Origin: Bacteroidales bacterium
GTDB taxonomy: Bacteria > Bacteroidota > Bacteroidia > Bacteroidales > JAAYJT01
DNA: 64,000 bases
Direction: 5' to 3'
NCBI GenBank assembly: GCA_014860575.1
Contig: JACZJK010000035.1
Coordinates: 67,175-131,174, forward strand
Shown here: positions 1-7,679 of the stretch, one piece after another
Position numbering within the stretch: position 1 is the stretch's first letter
How the letters are laid out: the number at the start of each line of letters is the position of its first letter
Translations under genes and position numbers: made by a program
Notes under the pieces: generated by a model
Told to the model about the DNA's origin: nothing
The model's database searches: none
What the model saw: the letters and a program-made list of their open reading frames with translations, nothing else

Positions 1-3
1 CTT

Positions 4-648
4 TTGCAAATGAATGACACACTGCATATTGGACGCGGAAAGGAAAACCATTTGGTTGTAAAAGACGAAAAGGTGAGCAGCAATCATTGCTGCATCAAAA
101 AGCTTTCCGCTAATGAATTTATTGTTGAGGATTTGGGAAGCAGTAACGGCACATTCTTAAATGGCAAGAGAATAATGCGGGCGGCCCTGACAGAAACCCA
201 TACGTTGTGCCTTGCTTCTTATGCTGTTGAACCCAAATTCATTTTATCATCTTTCGATCACGTTACGCTGAAAAAAGGCGTAGCTTATGAAGATCTTATC
301 AAACAGGAACATATCTTTCATGATTTTGCGAACCTGAAGATGATTTATGATCAATACCAGAAAGAAAAGCGCAGGATTATGAAAAGCAATACGCTAAAAA
401 GTACCGGCCTCCGGGCAGGACTGTCGTTTATTCCTGTGGTTGGTGTTGCACTCGGCATCTTATCAACGGGAGTTACAGGTAATGTCCAGGAGCAGTTAAT
501 GGAACTGGAAGAAACATTTAAAAGAAATTATATCTGCCCCGGTTGCTTTAAGTTCTTAGGTGCCGAACCGTTTGAGAATATGGAGAAAAGGGGCTTTTGC
601 CACGCCTGCAAAACAAAATGGAAGCGAAAACCAATAATATTAAAGTGA
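4..648 (+). CDS. FHA-domain protein with a central hydrophobic segment and a C-terminal 4-Cys zinc ribbon
   Basis: The frame is open to window position 1 (TTG at 4; ATG at 10 gives MNDTLHIGRG), so the 5' end may be cut. FHA hallmarks are HIGRGKENHLVV, VSSNHCCI and DLGSSNGTFLNGKRI. There is a hydrophobic run AGLSFIPVVGVALGILSTGV and a CPGC-x17-CHAC motif near the C-terminus. Confidence 0.8.
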   Translation: MQMNDTLHIGRGKENHLVVKDEKVSSNHCCIKKLSANEFIVEDLGSSNGTFLNGKRIMRAALTETHTLCLASYAVEPKFILSSFDHVTLKKGVAYEDLIKQEHIFHDFANLKMIYDQYQKEKRRIMKSNTLKSTGLRAGLSFIPVVGVALGILSTGVTGNVQEQLMELEETFKRNYICPGCFKFLGAEPFENMEKRGFCHACKTKWKRKPIILK

Positions 649-671
649 ACAACAAGCTAAAATCAAATATT

Positions 672-1790
672 ATGAGCACAGAAAAAACCAATGCCGGCAA
701 AGATCTTTCGTTTGTGAACCCTGAACCAAATGAAAGACTGTTAGATCCAAAAACAGGAAAAACCATCAGCAGGAAGAAGTCACTCTTCATGGCAGGTGGC
801 GCAATGGCTGCAGGAGCAGTGTTAGGCGATTTTTCACAGAGTCAGGAAATTACTGAAATATTACTTGATAGTGATGGCGATGGGGTTGCTGATTCTACGT
901 TAACTGATGAAAACAATGATGGTGTTTTTGAGGTTGAGACATCACTTAGTGAAGATAATGCACAGCAAACCGAAACCCAGGCGCAACCGTGGAACCCAGG
1001 TACTGCTCCAATGGCCGGTTCAGGAACTGTAAGCGACAACATGTCTTTTTCCGAAGCATTTTCAGCCGCCCGCGAAGAACTTGGAGCTGGTGGAGTTTTT
1101 GCCTGGCAAGGGCAGTACTACAACACTTTCTATGCAGAAGAACTGGATGACAACAACCAACCTGTTGTTGATTATCCAACAACAGACTATCATGGTTTGC
1201 CACAAGTTGATTTCAATGAGAATGCTGCTGAGTCAATACATGATGAAGGCGGGTTTGAGAGTGCAGATACAGATTCTGGTTCTGACCTTGACCCTCAGGC
1301 GCTGGCTGCAGACCTGGACATGGATGGGAATGTAGATGCGGTTTTTGTTGATCTGAACCTTGATGGAAGCGCAGATGTCATCTACACCGATATTAACCAG
1401 GATGGCCAGATTACAGAGGATGAATTTATTATTATTCATGATCCTGCTGACCTTGTAATTCCTGAAACCCCATCGGATGGTTCAATGATGTCAGTTGATA
1501 CGAACGCTGATGGAATTGACGATATGCTGCTGGCCGATGTTGACTCCGATCAGGTTGCCGATATGCTTGGTGTTGATGCAAACAGGGATCAGCTTATTGA
1601 TGAAAGCGAAATCAGTGTCCTTAATGCGGAAGCTATGGAGGATACATCATTTGGCCCAGCTGAAATAGAATACTCGGGTGAGGTTTCAGTGGATATGCCG
1701 GAAGATGTATCCGATGAAATGCTTGACAGCATGGATGATGATTTGTCAAGCCTCGAAGATAACTTTGATGAAATCAATGAGTGGTCGTAA
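672..1790 (+). CDS. Membrane-anchored poly-acidic protein with DxDxDG-type (calcium-binding-like) repeats
   Basis: The track ORF starts at 597, inside the upstream gene. The first ATG after that gene's stop is 672 (MSTEKTNAGK). RKK is followed by the hydrophobic helix LFMAGGAMAAGAVLG. By my reading the remaining ~310 aa contain no Lys and only two Arg, and are dominated by D/E with DSDGDG, DENNDG, DLDMDG, DLNLDG, DINQDG and DTNADG motifs. Confidence 0.75.
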   Translation: MSTEKTNAGKDLSFVNPEPNERLLDPKTGKTISRKKSLFMAGGAMAAGAVLGDFSQSQEITEILLDSDGDGVADSTLTDENNDGVFEVETSLSEDNAQQTETQAQPWNPGTAPMAGSGTVSDNMSFSEAFSAAREELGAGGVFAWQGQYYNTFYAEELDDNNQPVVDYPTTDYHGLPQVDFNENAAESIHDEGGFESADTDSGSDLDPQALAADLDMDGNVDAVFVDLNLDGSADVIYTDINQDGQITEDEFIIIHDPADLVIPETPSDGSMMSVDTNADGIDDMLLADVDSDQVADMLGVDANRDQLIDESEISVLNAEAMEDTSFGPAEIEYSGEVSVDMPEDVSDEMLDSMDDDLSSLEDNFDEINEWS

Positions 1791-1803
1791 TTTATTCTGA
1801 CTT

Positions 1804-2319
1804 ATGCAACTCAAATGCTCCAAGTGCCAGAAGGTTAATGTTATTGCCGACGATAAGCTGCCAAAGGACAAGGAAAAGGCCATGGTAAAATGCCCTGCAT
1901 GCCAGCAGGTTCTTGTGTTCACAATTCCAGCGGCATTAAGAAAATCAACTGTTCAGGATGAGAAAACCGTGATCAGTGGCGGACAAACCATCCATCAGCG
2001 CCCGATACTCTGGCATGCAAACGATGGCACGGAATACAATCTGGAAAAGGGTATTAATATCATTGGCCGTGAGGCTGATATTTCATTTCCAAACGATCGC
2101 TACATCAGCCGTAAACATTGCGTTATAGAGGTTATAGAGAAATATGGTGAAATGCAATGCATCCTTACCGACGACGGAAGTTTATCATCAAGTGGTGAAC
2201 CCAGCACCAACGGCACTTTCCTCAACGATCTCAGGTTAACCCGCTATGACAAACTTTTTCTGAACCACGGTGATAAGATCAGGGTCGGGCGCACGGAATT
2301 TCTTTTCAAAAATGACTAA
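1804..2319 (+). CDS. Zinc-ribbon + FHA domain protein
   Basis: N-terminal CSKC-x21-CPAC ribbon. C-terminal FHA hallmarks are INIIGREADISF, ISRKHCVIEV, STNGTFLND and GDKIRVGRTEFLF. It starts 13 nt after the previous stop. Confidence 0.85.
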   Translation: MQLKCSKCQKVNVIADDKLPKDKEKAMVKCPACQQVLVFTIPAALRKSTVQDEKTVISGGQTIHQRPILWHANDGTEYNLEKGINIIGREADISFPNDRYISRKHCVIEVIEKYGEMQCILTDDGSLSSSGEPSTNGTFLNDLRLTRYDKLFLNHGDKIRVGRTEFLFKND

Positions 2320-2334
2320 CGAGACCATCATTCC

Positions 2335-3927
2335 ATGATAGGAGAAAAAATACATCATTACAGAATTACCCGTTTGATTGGCGAAGGCGGCATGGCTTCG
2401 GTGTATGAGGCATTGCACGAGAAATTGCAATCGAAAGTAGCAATCAAAGTGCTGAACCCCATACTCACTGCCAACGCGAATATCCGCCAACGGTTCGAAA
2501 ACGAGGCACGTTTCATGGCCGGCTTAAACCACGCTAATATTACACGGGTGATTGATTATGAAGAACGCCCCGATTTGCTAGCCATTGTAATGGAATTCCT
2601 TGAAGGGGAAGACCTGAATGTAATCATTAAAAAGCATGGCCCCATGCCGCTGACAGAAGCTATTCCCATCTTCCTGCAGGCATTGGATGCGTTTGAGTAT
2701 GCACATCAGAAAGGGATTGTTCATCGTGACGTTAAACCTTCAAATATTTTTATAAAATCTTCGGGTACCGCAAAGATCCTTGACTTTGGGATCGCAAAGA
2801 TCGTTGGCGGTGCTGATGACATGACCGTAACCGGAACCCAGATGGGAACTCCCGTTTACATGAGTCCTGAACAGGTAAATACCGATAAAAACATTGATCA
2901 TCGCAGCGATATTTATTCCCTTGCTGTTACGCTTTATTACATGCTGAATGGCAAACCGCCTTATGATGTGACAACCACATCGAGTTTCCAGATTTATACC
3001 CGCATCGTCCACGAACCATTGCCATTGCTGGGCCGTTTCCCGGAGATTGACGAAATCCTGAAAACAGCCACCCATAAGGATCGCACTTTAAGGTATCAAA
3101 CATGCAGGGATTTTAAGCTTGCGCTGATTGAAGCCACACAGACACCAAACTCTGCTCTGGATAAACAAATCACACTTCCTGCTATTGATGATGATAAAAC
3201 TATGATTGATGATGGGTCGGATACCTATAGTAGTAAACAGGGCAAGAATGAAGTTAAGGGAAAGCATGTGGCGCAGAAGAAAGATCCGGTTAAGGTAGAA
3301 GGCAACAACACGATCAATAAGCCTCAGAAAACAAATAAGACAATTTTTGTCCTGGCTGTATTGCTGGGCTTGTTGGCGCTAATAATTATTCTTTGGCGAA
3401 CCGTTGGGCCTTTTGAATCACACACTGCTGATTTGGCGCGCCAGGATAGCATTCGTGTTGCTGACAGTTTGAATAAGGTCAGGGATGAAATACGAAACCG
3501 AAGAATAGCCGATAGCCTAGGGGTTCAGGATAGCATACAATCCATAATTAATGATTCAGTAAATAGAATAAGGGATATTTACCTGGGTGATCACCTTTTC
3601 AGTTGCTATTTTATCGGTAGTGATGAGCAGTTTGGGAAGGTTACAATACAGGAAGCGAACGGGGTGTTCAATTTGAACGGCAGGCATGAGCACCAAGGCA
3701 ATTCTGTTAAGATTGAAGGAACCATTAAAGTCCTTTCCTTACGAAAGTTTGAATTCACTGGAACAATCACATCCAATAATAAATCGGAGTCTAATGCTTC
3801 CTGCACATGGAACGGTACTACTGTATTCTGGGCATCAGGTTCAAGAAGGTACTGGCGAACTCAAGATCATAATTGTTTTAGTCATACCGGAGATATGGAT
3901 ATCTATTTTAACAGATCTGGCACTTAG
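2335..3927 (+). CDS. Hanks-type Ser/Thr protein kinase, single-pass membrane protein with an unknown C-terminal ectodomain
   Basis: GEGGMASVYEA..VAIKVL (ATP site), HRDVKPSNIF (catalytic loop), DFGIAK and GTPVYMSPEQ. One hydrophobic helix IFVLAVLLGLLALIIILW lies after a K/Q-rich linker. The last ~165 aa have no motif I recognise. Confidence 0.9.
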   Translation: MIGEKIHHYRITRLIGEGGMASVYEALHEKLQSKVAIKVLNPILTANANIRQRFENEARFMAGLNHANITRVIDYEERPDLLAIVMEFLEGEDLNVIIKKHGPMPLTEAIPIFLQALDAFEYAHQKGIVHRDVKPSNIFIKSSGTAKILDFGIAKIVGGADDMTVTGTQMGTPVYMSPEQVNTDKNIDHRSDIYSLAVTLYYMLNGKPPYDVTTTSSFQIYTRIVHEPLPLLGRFPEIDEILKTATHKDRTLRYQTCRDFKLALIEATQTPNSALDKQITLPAIDDDKTMIDDGSDTYSSKQGKNEVKGKHVAQKKDPVKVEGNNTINKPQKTNKTIFVLAVLLGLLALIIILWRTVGPFESHTADLARQDSIRVADSLNKVRDEIRNRRIADSLGVQDSIQSIINDSVNRIRDIYLGDHLFSCYFIGSDEQFGKVTIQEANGVFNLNGRHEHQGNSVKIEGTIKVLSLRKFEFTGTITSNNKSESNASCTWNGTTVFWASGSRRYWRTQDHNCFSHTGDMDIYFNRSGT

Positions 3928-4006
3928 TTGCTTAAAATTCAAAGCTTGCCAAGATATTACCGTTTTTTACTAACAATCAGGATTTGGAGAAAAGGAGACC
4001 GCAAAA

Positions 4007-4639
4007 ATGTTTAAGCAAATCAGAGATATGCTTGATAATGCTCAAAGGCTTGCTGAAGCAGAAACAGCGGCAGCAAATCCAATAGTTTCTAACGACCCTA
4101 AGATAAATTTCGAAGAACTAGTCAAGTTATCTGAAATCAAAAATTCGCGTTTTAAGATTGCAGGTGATGCCCAGCAATTTGAAATTATCTGCAAACCGGA
4201 TTATTTTATTGTATTGCTCTGGGCAGTATTTATCTTCTATGTACCGGTTCGTTCAATCATTGAACAGAGCTTTGATTCAACCAATCTGATTGTAATGTTT
4301 GTTTTACTGGGTGTAATGCTTTTTTACTATAAGTATGCCAATACTACCTACATTATTATTGTTGACAGTCATCAAAAACTAATGTTGTTAAAAAGCAATG
4401 ATCCGGTAGGAAGAATTCTAAGACCCGAAATAGTTATTGAATTCAGGGACTTTACTGATTTTTCAGTTAAGCGTATCTTTACCAAAATGAAAGGTACAAC
4501 CCGCCAATACTGCAAGGTATATATTCATTCTAAAAATGATAAATTAGCGCTCATTTACCTCCCTGATGAACAGCTTAACGTTGTTGACCACAAATTATTT
4601 ATAGCTAACCTGAAAAGCATTTTAAAGCATCATATCTGA
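4007..4639 (+). CDS. Hypothetical 2-TM membrane protein
   Basis: 210-aa ORF, co-directional, 80 nt after the kinase. Two hydrophobic helices (YFIVLLWAVFIFYVPV, LIVMFVLLGVMLFYY). No recognisable catalytic motif. Confidence 0.6.
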   Translation: MFKQIRDMLDNAQRLAEAETAAANPIVSNDPKINFEELVKLSEIKNSRFKIAGDAQQFEIICKPDYFIVLLWAVFIFYVPVRSIIEQSFDSTNLIVMFVLLGVMLFYYKYANTTYIIIVDSHQKLMLLKSNDPVGRILRPEIVIEFRDFTDFSVKRIFTKMKGTTRQYCKVYIHSKNDKLALIYLPDEQLNVVDHKLFIANLKSILKHHI

Positions 4640-4761: not shown

Positions 4762-4769
4762 TATCTTTG
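4762..4769 (+). promoter_or_regulatory. Candidate Bacteroidota -7 promoter box (TATCTTTG) for the regulator gene
   Basis: Exact match to the TAnnTTTG consensus, 34 nt upstream of ATG 4803. It overlaps the TTG at 4767 that the ORF track used as the start. Confidence 0.4.
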
Positions 4770-4802
4770 AACCTGCTTAAATCACCGATTTGGTTCAAAC
4801 CG

Positions 4803-7679
4803 ATGCTGACCAGGAAAAGGGCACATAGTTTAAGGATAAACACTCTCAACCTTGGGTTGCTTATTCCTTTTCTGGTAATTCACAGCCTTTTTTATTCTCA
4901 AAGCCCTTATCACATAACCAATTATAAAAAATCTGATTATGGCGCTGCCAATCAGAATTGGGATATTGACCTTGATGCCAACGGCAACGTTTTTATTGCC
5001 AATCATAAAGGCTTGCTCAGTCTTTCAGGTTCGCATATTTCCCTGAACGAACTTCCAGGCAAAACTATTATCCGCTCGGTAGCATCCATCAATAACAGGA
5101 TTTATACTGGTTCTTTCGAGGAATTTGGTTATTGGGAAAATGATGAGAACGGTCAGTTGCATTACTATTCGTTAGTTCCGTTGCTTACTGGTGATTCGTT
5201 GCTGAATGATGAGATTTGGAAAATTGTAAATGTGGGAGACCAAATCTATTTCCAGAGTTTTGGGAAATTGCTTTGTTACGAAAACCATCGTGTCAGCTCC
5301 ATAACAATTCCGGGTTCCATGATGTTCTTGATCAAATGCAACGAAAGACTTTTTGCCCAGCAAATTGATGGTGGACTTTACGAAATCATAGACAAACAGC
5401 TAATTTTTATTGAAGGAAGCCAGATATTCAGCGAAACGGAAATTAAGGCGATATTGCCATTGGAGAACGGCAGGTTTATAATAGGAACAAGTTCCCGTGG
5501 GCTCATACTTTTTGACGGCCTGGATTTTCAGGAGTGGGAGATTCCGGTTTCAGAGCAACTTAAAGCCTTTAAGATCAACAACGGGATCAGGATTGGCGAC
5601 CGGCTGATTTTTGGAACAATCTTGAATGGCGTTTTTATTCTCAGCCTCGATGGCGAACTCGTTTATCATATCAACACAGCAACATCACTTCAAAATAATA
5701 CTGTGCTGGCAGTTCATGGAGACGCTGACAACAATCTTTGGGTAGGGCTTGATAAAGGCTTTGATTATATTGCATTCAATACCCCCCTTGTAACTTACAT
5801 CGAATCAGCGGAAAGTTTTGGAACCGTTTATGCTGCTTGTCTTTTTAAGAACACACTTTACGTTGGAACCAACCAGGGAATTTATTATTTCAGTATGTAT
5901 GCTGATGGGTTGCTATATAACAAAAAGTTTCTCAACGGATCACAGGGACAGGTTTGGTTCATCAATATAATTGATGGGGCTCTCTACTGTGGGCTAAATG
6001 ATGGCACATACCTGATAAAGGACAATGAGCTGACTCCTGTGAGCAACGTCAGCGGAGGTTACAATCTAAAGCATGCCACATTGCATGATGAGCAATTCAT
6101 GATTCAGAGTACATATAGCGACCTAGTGGTTTATAGTAAACAAAATGTAACCTGGATGCAAAGCCATACTATGGCTGGATTTGGAGCTCCGGCGCGCTTT
6201 CTTGAAATGGATCATACCGGAAACATTTGGCTGGGGCATACCATAGCAGGCTTGTATTTGGTTCAGCCGAACGCTGGATTAGATACAGCTATGCTTGTAC
6301 TCAAACCAGGCATCGAACATGGCATCCATGATAATTGGAACCATATTTACAAAGTTGACAACAGAATTATTGTACCAACCGGCCAAGCCTTGCTGCAATG
6401 GGATGCCATTCAAAACAAAATGGTTCCATACCATGAACTTGCAATGCAGCTTGAAGGATTTGAAGCATCGCATACAATCCTTTCGGCAGGGCCAGGTAAA
6501 TACTGGTTCATAAAAGAAAACGAAGTCGGTTTTTTCGAGATCCGGTTTGGTAAGGCCGAACTGTTGTATCGCTTGCTTCCGCAGATGTACAGCCTGAGCA
6601 TGGTGGAGGATTATGAAAACATCGTAGCGCTCAATGACAGCCTGCAACTTATTTGCCTTGAGAATGGTTTTTCTATTCTGAACCTTCAGCGTTTGAACCG
6701 GCTACCTGACTTAAACGCACCACCGCTGATCAGCGAGGTCGTTTTCTGGAAAACCTCAGAAAATAAGATACGGTACAAACCTGACACCGACTCGAAAAAG
6801 CAGTTTAAACATAGTCATAATAACCTGCAGTTTATCTTTTCAGCGCCCGGCCCAGTTGGCAAAAAGAAGTACTTCCAGTATAAACTACATAGTTTTGATA
6901 TAGATTGGAGCGATTGGATCACTACATCGGAAATCACTTACAACCGCCTGCCTCCCGGGTCTTATACATTCATGTTACGAACACTTACAAACCAGGGAGT
7001 GATCACACAAAATGCACAGGTTTCAATAAAGATAAGGCCACCCTGGTACCTCTCGTATTTTTCATTTGCGTTTTATGTGCTGTTTTTTGTTGGCCTTGTT
7101 TGGTTAATAAGGCTCAATTACCTGCGGAGAAACTGGAAAAACCAGGAGGAGATACTTCGCAAGGAACAAGAGAAAATTCTGCTTCAAAAAGAACAGGCCG
7201 AAAGTGAGGTCATACGATTAAGTAACGAAAAGCTGCAATCTGAAATAATGTTGAAGAATTCGCAACTTGCCAACAGTACGATGGCGTTGTTAAGAAAGAA
7301 CGAATTGCTGGGCAATTTGCAGGAAGAGTTAAACCGGCAAAGGGAAGAACTCGGGCAAAGACTTCCCAGGAAATATTTCATGCGTATTAACCGATTGATT
7401 GAAAACAGTTTTAAGAGCGACCAGGAATGGGAAGTGTTTGAAAAACTTTTCGACCAGGCTCATGAGAATTTCTTCCAGCGACTCAAATCTGATTACCCTG
7501 GCCTTACCCCAAGCGATCTCAGGCTTTGTGCTTACCTGCGCCTGAATTTATCATCAAAGGAAATTGCCCCATTGCTTAATATCTCAGTAAGAGGGGTTGA
7601 GGAGCGGCGATACCGTTTACGTAAACGCCTTCATCTGGCATCAGAACAAAATCTTATAGAATTTATACTTGCTTACTGA
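4803..7679 (+). CDS. Transmembrane one-component regulator: propeller-repeat sensor + Y_Y_Y domain + TM + coiled coil + LuxR/GerE HTH
   Basis: N-terminal hydrophobic anchor, then ~650 aa of propeller-like repeats. A Y_Y_Y-type segment (YFQYKLHSFDIDWSDW..YNRLPPGSYTF) is followed by the TM helix FSFAFYVLFFVGLVWLI and a heptad-rich stretch. The C-terminal HTH reads LTPSDLRLCAYLRLNLSSKEIAPLLNISVRGVEERRYRLRKRL. I see no histidine-kinase H-box, ATPase or receiver motifs. Confidence 0.8.
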   Translation: MLTRKRAHSLRINTLNLGLLIPFLVIHSLFYSQSPYHITNYKKSDYGAANQNWDIDLDANGNVFIANHKGLLSLSGSHISLNELPGKTIIRSVASINNRIYTGSFEEFGYWENDENGQLHYYSLVPLLTGDSLLNDEIWKIVNVGDQIYFQSFGKLLCYENHRVSSITIPGSMMFLIKCNERLFAQQIDGGLYEIIDKQLIFIEGSQIFSETEIKAILPLENGRFIIGTSSRGLILFDGLDFQEWEIPVSEQLKAFKINNGIRIGDRLIFGTILNGVFILSLDGELVYHINTATSLQNNTVLAVHGDADNNLWVGLDKGFDYIAFNTPLVTYIESAESFGTVYAACLFKNTLYVGTNQGIYYFSMYADGLLYNKKFLNGSQGQVWFINIIDGALYCGLNDGTYLIKDNELTPVSNVSGGYNLKHATLHDEQFMIQSTYSDLVVYSKQNVTWMQSHTMAGFGAPARFLEMDHTGNIWLGHTIAGLYLVQPNAGLDTAMLVLKPGIEHGIHDNWNHIYKVDNRIIVPTGQALLQWDAIQNKMVPYHELAMQLEGFEASHTILSAGPGKYWFIKENEVGFFEIRFGKAELLYRLLPQMYSLSMVEDYENIVALNDSLQLICLENGFSILNLQRLNRLPDLNAPPLISEVVFWKTSENKIRYKPDTDSKKQFKHSHNNLQFIFSAPGPVGKKKYFQYKLHSFDIDWSDWITTSEITYNRLPPGSYTFMLRTLTNQGVITQNAQVSIKIRPPWYLSYFSFAFYVLFFVGLVWLIRLNYLRRNWKNQEEILRKEQEKILLQKEQAESEVIRLSNEKLQSEIMLKNSQLANSTMALLRKNELLGNLQEELNRQREELGQRLPRKYFMRINRLIENSFKSDQEWEVFEKLFDQAHENFFQRLKSDYPGLTPSDLRLCAYLRLNLSSKEIAPLLNISVRGVEERRYRLRKRLHLASEQNLIEFILAY

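Follow-up and report, generated by a model that had tools for sequence, protein, structure and literature searches.

We analysed a 64,000-nt stretch of contig JACZJK010000035.1 from a Bacteroidales bacterium (hereafter the window), which opens with five co-directional genes that belong to a candidate Ser/Thr phospho-signalling cluster. All five open reading frames (ORFs) lie on the + strand. g1 (10-648; 212 aa) encodes an FHA domain followed by a four-cysteine zinc ribbon, g2 (672-1790; 372 aa) an acidic protein with DxDxDG repeats, g3 (1804-2319; 171 aa) a zinc ribbon followed by an FHA domain, g4 (2335-3927; 530 aa) a transmembrane (TM) Hanks-type Ser/Thr kinase, and g5 (4007-4639; 210 aa; start preferred by the gene caller at 4028) a protein with two TM helices. 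The successive intergenic gaps are 23, 13, 15 and 79 nt. A first-pass annotation had described these genes as an edge-truncated membrane phospho-signalling cassette of closely packed genes, and most of that description was borne out. The four-cysteine ribbons do sit at opposite ends of the two FHA proteins, with exactly the proposed spacings (CPGC-x17-CHAC in g1, CSKC-x21-CPAC in g3), the Hanks motifs and a TM segment at residues 336-354 were found in g4, and the TM segments proposed for three of the five proteins are matched by hydrophobic 19-mers over threshold in g1, g4 and g5.

The truncation applies to the cluster, which is cut at window position 1, and not to g1 itself, which is a complete gene. 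An exact-sequence look-up of g3 returned a 31-kb Logan contig (L001) that shares 12,319 nt with the window without a difference; window position 1 falls at L001 position 8198. In this contig the g1 frame has a stop codon 15 nt ahead of the window start; the first start codons of g1 are a TTG at window 4 and an ATG at window 10, and the protein begins MNDTLHIGRG. The first-pass annotation had also remarked that the visible part held no PP2C phosphatase and that more of the cassette might lie beyond position 1. Indeed, a PP2C gene (251 aa) ends 51 nt before window position 1 on the same strand, and just before it, again on the same strand, lies a Peptidase_C14 caspase-like gene (255 aa) whose product has a Sec-type signal peptide. 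Both genes are co-directional with g1-g5 and separated by small gaps, which agrees with the proposed cassette, and an intergenic region of 370 nt precedes the caspase gene. The unit comprises seven genes in the order C14, PP2C, g1, g2, g3, g4, g5, and we infer that they form a single transcription unit.

Recurrence of the cluster across Bacteroidota

The same seven genes are found with entirely different flanks in a Lentimicrobium sp. (L087) and in a further Lentimicrobium-type contig (L088), while a third, Lentimicrobium-type locus (L089) holds six of the seven, without g5 and with the kinase moved to follow g1. Contigs of a sister species (L003-L006; 77-93% protein identity) carry six intact cluster genes. 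At greater distance, a metagenome-assembled genome (MAG) of Runella sp. (Cytophagales) encodes a g1-type protein, an acidic protein, a g3-type protein, two kinases, PP2C and C14 on one strand, and a Tannerellaceae MAG retains a core only, made up of a LytTR gene, g1-type, g3-type, PP2C and kinase genes. Two other distant loci (L090 and L092) also carry the cluster with different flanks. By exact-sequence look-ups, the commonest human-gut versions belong to Bacteroides uniformis and Bacteroides sp. CAG:530, in which the cluster proteins are annotated only as 'caspase family protein', 'FHA domain-containing protein', 'predicted protein' or 'hypothetical'.

For a census of loci, metagenome contigs were scanned with the acidic protein. 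The full-length alignment held no stretch conserved enough for this purpose, and a 54-residue core was used instead, which recovered at least 288 relatives. The loci of the best 80 of these were annotated with hidden Markov models (HMMs) built from loci already found, and a subset of 18 well-flanked loci, in which the acidic gene has 6 kb or more on either side, was counted over an 8-kb neighbourhood. The g3-type zinc-ribbon/FHA gene is present in 64 of the 80 loci and in all 18 of the well-flanked ones. The corresponding counts are 53 and 15 for the C14 caspase-like gene, 50 and 16 for the Ser/Thr kinase, 44 and 14 for PP2C, 35 and 13 for the g1-type FHA/zinc-ribbon gene, and 19 and 7 for LytTR. 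Throughout the 80 loci the cluster genes are co-directional with the acidic gene, the one exception being a reverse-strand kinase in L167. Kinase copies vary from 0 to 5 within 8 kb in the well-flanked loci, with up to six ORFs per locus. A comparable profile scan of genome contigs with the g1 alignment was swamped by the generic FHA pattern, and its full-length relatives were those of Runella and Tannerellaceae only.

Two layouts can be recognised. The Lentimicrobium-type layout, to which the window belongs, has the order C14, PP2C, g1, acidic, g3, kinase, 2TM. In the Bacteroides-type layout the order is LytTR, g1-type, one to three acidic paralogues, C14, g3-type, PP2C and kinase(s); here PP2C carries a C-terminal TM segment and there are between one and six kinases. 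What is kept across Bacteroidota with different flanks is thus the order, or at minimum the gene set; this is the outcome expected under the first-pass annotation, which had named an unconserved gene order as evidence against its proposal. The flanks themselves (88 ORFs) are heterogeneous and mostly housekeeping. The cluster is a conserved Bacteroidota gene neighbourhood, and as dozens of unrelated contigs carry the same set of genes, its arrangement is far beyond chance.

Some neighbours of individual loci deserve mention. Downstream of the cluster in the window, SusC/SusD genes are preceded by a 970-aa regulator (4767-7679) that combines Reg_prop and Y_Y_Y domains with a TM helix, a coiled coil and, at the C-terminus, a helix-turn-helix of LuxR/sigma-70-region-4 type. 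Neither a histidine kinase nor a receiver domain was detected in it, and it is therefore not a classical hybrid two-component regulator of a polysaccharide utilization locus (PUL). The first-pass annotation had placed the cassette directly upstream of this PUL regulator; since the flanks differ in every other cluster locus, the proximity is incidental and the regulator an unrelated neighbour. On the other side, next to the caspase gene, a 574-aa secreted protein (L001 4493-6217) ends in a FlgD_ig/Por_Secre_tail domain for type IX secretion system (T9SS) sorting. The sister species has it as well, but none of the other cluster loci does, and it is probably unrelated to the cluster. Directly upstream of the caspase gene in the two other seven-gene loci (L087 6680-7324, L088 6711-7415) lies a conserved lipoprotein-like protein of ~215-235 aa, which has no Pfam match and is missing from the window genome; it may be an additional accessory component.

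Properties of the encoded proteins

The kinase g4 has a catalytic domain at aa 9-270 (nt ~2359-3144) that matches Pfam Pkinase PF00069 at E 1.6e-52 (179 bits against a cut-off of 31.7), as is characteristic of a Hanks-type kinase. Its motifs are VAIK 35, HRDVKPSN 130, DFG 150, SPE 177 and DIYSLA 192, and the glycine loop reads GEGGMA, with Ala in place of the third Gly. A K/T/P-rich linker connects the catalytic domain to one strong TM helix (aa 336-354, nt 3340-3396), which is followed by a C-terminal extracytoplasmic domain of 176 aa (nt 3397-3924). This ectodomain had been called unrecognisable, a description that does not fully apply, as precomputed annotation places it in PF27214 ('PM1083'). 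A sequence search of the PDB found no relative of it, and a literature search for 'PM1083' gave unrelated matches only. The ectodomains of orthologous kinases range from 142 to 551 aa and include PM1083, TMEM260_2+FKBP_C, WG repeats, Sel1, MORN-like, FGE-sulfatase-like (formylglycine-generating enzyme) and multi-TM types. In one Bacteroides uniformis-type contig (L129 1010-9036 and 13003-14586) six Hanks-kinase ORFs, including one truncated fragment, are distributed around the acidic, C14, FHA and PP2C genes, five upstream and one downstream. Their ectodomains differ, being KWG/WG-repeat-like, Sel1/TPR, multi-TM, FGE-sulfatase-like and, in one case, without assignment. A 'KTI' juxtamembrane phosphosite apparently shared by g2 and the kinase was rejected as coincidence, as it is not conserved in orthologous kinases.

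The two upstream enzymes are equally recognisable. PP2C matches PF13672 (1e-15) and PF00481 (8.3e-13), and has the PP2C fold with its metal-binding Asp motifs; NMED, DGMGGH, GDSR, TDGI and RDN are kept in 8 orthologues. The caspase-like protein matches PF00656 at E 1.1e-23 and combines the Peptidase_C14 fold with a His-Cys dyad, the surrounding SGHG and DAC[YF][SA]G being invariant in 7 orthologues. A Sec-type signal peptide is present in six of six lineages (the window genome, Runella, L090, L092, B. uniformis and CAG:530), and given this signal peptide the cluster caspase is probably periplasmic. The catalytic residues of the kinase, PP2C and caspase and the phosphothreonine (pThr)-binding residues of the FHA domains are intact, so that the proteins look like active enzymes and functional readers.

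Both g1 and g3 are FHA proteins and predicted pThr binders, in that the fold and the GR, SxxH and NG residues are found in each. In g1 the FHA domain (aa 1-73, nt 10-228; Pfam PF00498, E 2.9e-16) is minimal and lacks the usual N-terminal strands, because the protein starts at MNDTLHIGRG. It is followed by a long helix (aa 93-131) in the AlphaFold2 (AF2) model, a conserved Gly-rich hydrophobic segment of 24 residues (aa 133-156, nt 406-477) and the C-terminal zinc ribbon (nt ~529-624). The g1 family comprises about 77 clusters at 47% identity or more, all of ~206 aa, and its named members come from 'Bacteroidales bacterium' and Lentimicrobium MAGs. Among 72 homologues, G8, H26, N46, G47 and the ribbon cysteines C176, C179 and C200 are invariant, while R9, S23 and the fourth cysteine, C197, are conserved in at least 90%. 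The AF2 model has a pLDDT (predicted local distance difference test) of 82, with the FHA domain, helix and ribbon confident. In Foldseek searches with this model only the FHA part found matches, to GarA/OdhI, CT664, FhaA, EmbR and ArnA, including the PDB entries 6i2p, 3oun and 2lc1 (mycobacterial modules) and 5a8i (ArnA); it superposes on the FHA domains of GarA, FhaA and CT664 with a root-mean-square deviation of 1.0-1.8 Å. Distant g1-type homologues have two clear TM helices between FHA domain and ribbon, which puts both domains on the cytoplasmic side there. The simplest reading of the Gly-rich segment of g1 would be a hairpin or re-entrant membrane anchor. Both g1 (406-477) and g2 (~783-830) have conserved Gly-rich, GxxxG-like hydrophobic segments that AF2, in contrast to the TM helix of the kinase, leaves unstructured (pLDDT <50), and the two may pair in the membrane.

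In g3 the order is reversed. An N-terminal zinc ribbon of MJ0042/Zn_ribbon_4 type (nt 1804-1911) precedes a C-terminal FHA domain (aa ~72-169, nt ~2017-2310; Pfam 1.3e-12). The ribbon match to Pfam Zn_ribbon_4 is borderline (8.8e-07, 29.2 bits against a cut-off of 30.3), and that to TIGR02098 reaches 5e-4. The four zinc-ribbon cysteines are conserved across orthologues. The pThr-binding motifs GR, SxxH and NG are largely kept in 8 g3 orthologues, with single substitutions in some.

The acidic protein g2 (pI 4.05, 24% D+E) has eight DxDxDG-like loops, which make it a candidate Ca2+ binder. Its parts, which are common to its homologues, are a basic N-terminal motif (DPKTGKTISRK in g2), a weakly hydrophobic Gly/Ala-rich segment (aa ~38-53, nt ~783-830), a core (D.MSFSEAF.AAREELGAGGVF.W.G..Y.T.Y.EE; aa ~110-160, nt ~999-1151), the DxDxDG loops (mainly aa 214-313, nt ~1311-1610) and an acidic tail with a Trp-x end, W-S in g2. 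The family core is an invariant stretch of ~45 residues (D.MSFSEAF.AAR.E.G.GG.F.W.G..Y.T.Y.E), and several of the loops are nearly invariant among 62 homologues. A profile built from these 62 sequences retrieved 2,696 representative clusters (50% identity) at E<=1e-3; with a cut-off of E<=1e-10 the number is 1,600. No match was found in Pfam, NCBIfam or PADLOC, and the AF2 model, confident for the core and the beta-rich loop region only, has no significant fold match in the PDB. g2 represents a large unannotated protein family, for whose core newer Pfam releases may already hold a domain of unknown function. No informative domain fusions were found among large members of the family, and no relatives of the acidic protein in 2.9 million viral contigs.

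The first-pass annotation had called g2 an ectoprotein. A periplasmic location of its C-terminal part appears plausible because basic residues precede the Gly/Ala-rich segment, paralogues have Pro-rich spacers and the adjacent caspase is exported. In Bacteroides sp. CAG:530 (L147 8339-10603) three acidic paralogues of 212, 195 and 328 aa stand in tandem, each with a basic N-terminus, a Gly-zipper-like segment, a Pro-rich/acidic spacer and an aromatic C-terminus; the MSFSEAF core is present in the last (328 aa) only. A TARA ocean contig (L091 6939-9967) holds a fused, decayed variant of the cluster with acidic-core::FHA (P0176) and PP2C::FHA fusions; beside these lie an abortive-infection gene of AIPR type, kinase ORFs in fragments and a gene for an FGE-sulfatase.

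The recognisable features of g5 are a pair of TM helices next to each other (aa 67-106, nt ~4205-4324) and, after them, a C-terminal domain of ~100 aa. It has no family match in Pfam, NCBIfam or PADLOC and 5 homologues only by word-based search. It directly follows the kinase in L087 (E 5.7e-59), L088 (3.4e-40) and L096, and is absent from the Runella, Tannerellaceae and Bacteroides versions of the cluster. g5 is a lineage-restricted accessory gene.

Possible functions of the cluster

There are possible explanations for the conservation of this gene set. We consider it reasonably probable that the cluster works as a trans-envelope Ser/Thr phospho-signalling module. Docking of FHA domains on Hanks kinases in a pThr-dependent manner is established for PknB with GarA and FhaA and for PpkA with Fha1, with PstP and PppA as the PP2C partners. 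In the module envisaged here, the extracytoplasmic domain of the kinase would sense a cue, and the kinase would phosphorylate threonine residues, its own or those of partners. Through their FHA domains the membrane-tethered g1 and the soluble g3 would dock on the pThr sites, and they would assemble a membrane complex via their zinc ribbons and Gly-rich segments, while PP2C would erase the phospho mark and reset the state. A periplasmic arm would be formed by the exported caspase together with the acidic Ca2+-type protein, anchored in the membrane; this arm may generate or process the signal, or may be controlled by it.

The output of such a module may be transcriptional in the Bacteroides-type versions. 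There, 4-90 nt separate a stand-alone LytTR gene from the g1-type gene downstream of it, and LytTR is present in 19 of the 35 loci with a g1-type gene. The LytTR Regulatory Systems HdrRM and BrsRM of Streptococcus mutans are pairs of a LytTR regulator and a membrane inhibitor (PMC6193735), and the Bacteroides-type loci share their order, a receiver-less LytTR gene followed by one for a membrane protein, here the g1-type FHA/2TM/zinc-ribbon protein. This resemblance suggests a transcriptional output, with the g1-type protein as a putative LytTR inhibitor that would tether LytTR under phospho-control. The inhibitors of the Streptococcus systems, in contrast, have no FHA domain, zinc ribbon, or kinase, phosphatase or caspase partners, and the window cluster has no LytTR gene and falls outside that class.

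A number of observations weigh against a complete signalling module, or against parts of it. Every function proposed here is read from domains and synteny. The kinase has been lost in the sister species, which keeps the other cluster genes; a remnant of ~180 nt (L003 9832-9958, corresponding to window 2335-3927) still encodes MIGEKIYHY... and an N-lobe piece, ...VMEFLEG.NLNVLIK. No kinase lies nearby in L100 either, and it follows that the neighbouring kinase is dispensable or that another acts in trans. No LytTR gene was found in the 64-kb window or within 8 kb upstream of it, so that the window version is without a recognisable output domain. The hydrophobic segments of g1 and g2 are both modelled by AF2 at pLDDT <50 without a helix, and that of g2 falls under the standard hydropathy threshold. 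The acidic::FHA fusion P0176 would imply a cytoplasmic acidic core; we give it little weight as proof of such a topology, since its locus, with fragmented kinase genes and an AIPR insertion, looks decayed. A scan for sigma-70 promoters and terminators gave counts equal to those of shuffled sequences and was uninformative, and the Bacteroidetes -7 motif TAnnTTTG is not enriched (20 sites, 21 expected). The caspase gene and the PUL regulator do have sites of this motif upstream, which is only weakly suggestive.

One alternative hypothesis is that the cluster is an anti-phage or conflict system of programmed-cell-death type, in which diversifying kinase sensors detect invaders and the caspase-like protein is the effector. 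The presence of a caspase-like protease, the highly variable kinase ectodomains, the tandem kinase arrays of up to six ORFs per locus and the FGE-sulfatase genes or domains beside kinases would all suit such a role, as would the loss or decay of the kinase in some lineages, which suggests a dispensable system, and the occasional neighbours AIPR, a restriction enzyme and HipA. Caspase, kinase, FHA and FGS domains are, moreover, counted as effectors in the conflict-system literature (PMC7159879; PMC8195603). We nevertheless regard this hypothesis as unlikely. PADLOC-DB v2 matches the generic kinase domain only (PD-T4-6, mad6 and similar), with none for g1, g2, g3 or g5; the viral contigs held no relative of the acidic protein; and the 88 flanking ORFs, largely housekeeping, include no coherent defence system. 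The caspase, a small exported protein, lacks an effector-associated or NTPase partner, and the annotated loci contain none of the STAND, vWA-MoxR or EAD (effector-associated domain) components of published systems.

Two further possibilities assign the cluster to known cellular machinery. A housekeeping regulator of envelope growth or division, comparable to the fhaA-fhaB-pstP-rodA-pbpA-pknA-pknB cluster or to PASTA-kinase modules, would likewise combine two FHA proteins (one membrane-tethered), PP2C and a TM Hanks kinase in an operon-like cluster within a chromosomal, largely housekeeping context, and the best NCBIfam matches are FhaB/FipA (Rv0019c) for the FHA proteins and PknB/Stk1 for the kinase. 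All of these matches lie far below their cut-offs, however (FhaB_Rv0019c 49.7 bits against 125; PknB_PASTA_kin 297 against 450), and no rodA, pbpA, ftsW or PASTA domain occurs in any annotated locus. With the kinase deleted in the sister species, and with a caspase, an acidic family and LytTR that have no counterpart in actinobacterial or PASTA systems, we find this role improbable. Post-translational regulation of a secretion or motility machine, whether type VI secretion (T6SS; PpkA/PppA/Fha1/TagH), the T9SS or gliding, is in our judgement highly improbable. The weak FHA matches to TagH (TIGR03354), GltG and Yop-YscD_cpl span the generic FHA fold only and are far below family cut-offs (TIGR03354 35.9 bits against 120). 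One g1 homologue bears the JGI annotation 'predicted component of type VI protein secretion system', and in the window genome the cluster is immediately preceded by a gene for a T9SS-sorted protein, but this neighbour is absent from the other loci, and none of the annotated loci has a core gene of the T6SS, the T9SS or gliding within +/-10 kb.

Returning to the trans-envelope phospho-signalling module, a broader version of it can be put forward tentatively. The cluster could represent a previously unrecognised, phylum-wide sensory system of Bacteroidota, a third route beside hybrid two-component and extracytoplasmic function (ECF)/anti-sigma systems. It would consist of kinases with interchangeable periplasmic sensors, a pair of zinc-ribbon FHA scaffolds and an inner-membrane coupling to an exported caspase and a Ca2+-binding anchor, with the g1-type protein as a phospho-controlled LytTR tether in Bacteroides. 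The protease would then be regulated from inside the cell or would process a signal from outside.

Relation to described systems and significance

In Pseudomonas aeruginosa, the threonine-phosphorylation pathway of the T6SS consists of the PpkA kinase, the PppA PP2C phosphatase and Fha1. Like that pathway and the mycobacterial PknB-PstP-FhaA/FhaB(FipA)/GarA module, the cluster encodes together a single-pass Hanks kinase with an extracytoplasmic sensor, a PP2C phosphatase and FHA readers, and one of its FHA proteins is membrane-tethered, as FhaB/FipA is. Unlike them, it has no linked secretion or cell-wall genes, both of its FHA proteins carry four-cysteine zinc ribbons, and an exported caspase-like protease and the acidic DxDxDG family are integral to it. 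Its kinase ectodomains and kinase copy number are also highly variable, and the NCBIfam equivalog cut-offs are not reached.

The closest parallel to the layout of g3 is ArnA of Sulfolobus, in which a zinc finger at the N-terminus is combined with a C-terminal FHA domain; it binds a phosphorylated partner and acts in ArnA-ArnB archaellum repression (PMC6509490). Both proteins place a four-cysteine zinc ribbon or finger before an FHA domain in a network controlled by kinase and phosphatase. The finger of ArnA is, however, of RanBP2 type, whereas the g3 ribbon is MJ0042/Zn_ribbon_4-like; its partner ArnB is a vWA protein, a class absent from the cluster; and ArnA is archaeal and cytosolic, with PP2A as phosphatase in place of PP2C. 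The caspase-like gene in turn shares the C14 fold and His/Cys dyad of prokaryotic caspase homologues (orthocaspases and metacaspases; PMC6426788). It differs from them in being minimal (about 240-260 aa), in its signal peptide and probable periplasmic location, in having no fused regulatory domain, save for MORN repeats in L092, and in being embedded in a kinase/FHA cluster.

None of the closest analogues, whether FHA/kinase/PP2C modules, ArnA or the LytTR Regulatory Systems, shares the full set of parts. A published description of the cluster was not found in the full-text literature, within its incomplete coverage, and neither was a PADLOC system or an NCBIfam equivalog. The first-pass annotation had been unable to map its gene combination to a described system, and this still stands, as Pfam, NCBIfam and PADLOC together with the full-text literature give no characterised pathway.

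The logic of FHA, kinase and PP2C is known, yet very little is known of Ser/Thr signalling in Bacteroidota, dominant species of the human gut included. The cluster joins parts not previously linked: an exported caspase, an acidic Ca2+-type family, a zinc-ribbon FHA pair, diversifying sensors and, in many genomes, LytTR. It is widespread and is present in the major gut commensal Bacteroides uniformis, which is possibly genetically tractable; this would make the hypotheses above directly testable. If characterised, the cluster could add a new family to protein annotation, could reveal what a periplasmic caspase homologue of bacteria does physiologically and which substrates it has, and could show which cues, environmental or from the envelope, gut Bacteroides sense via Hanks kinases.

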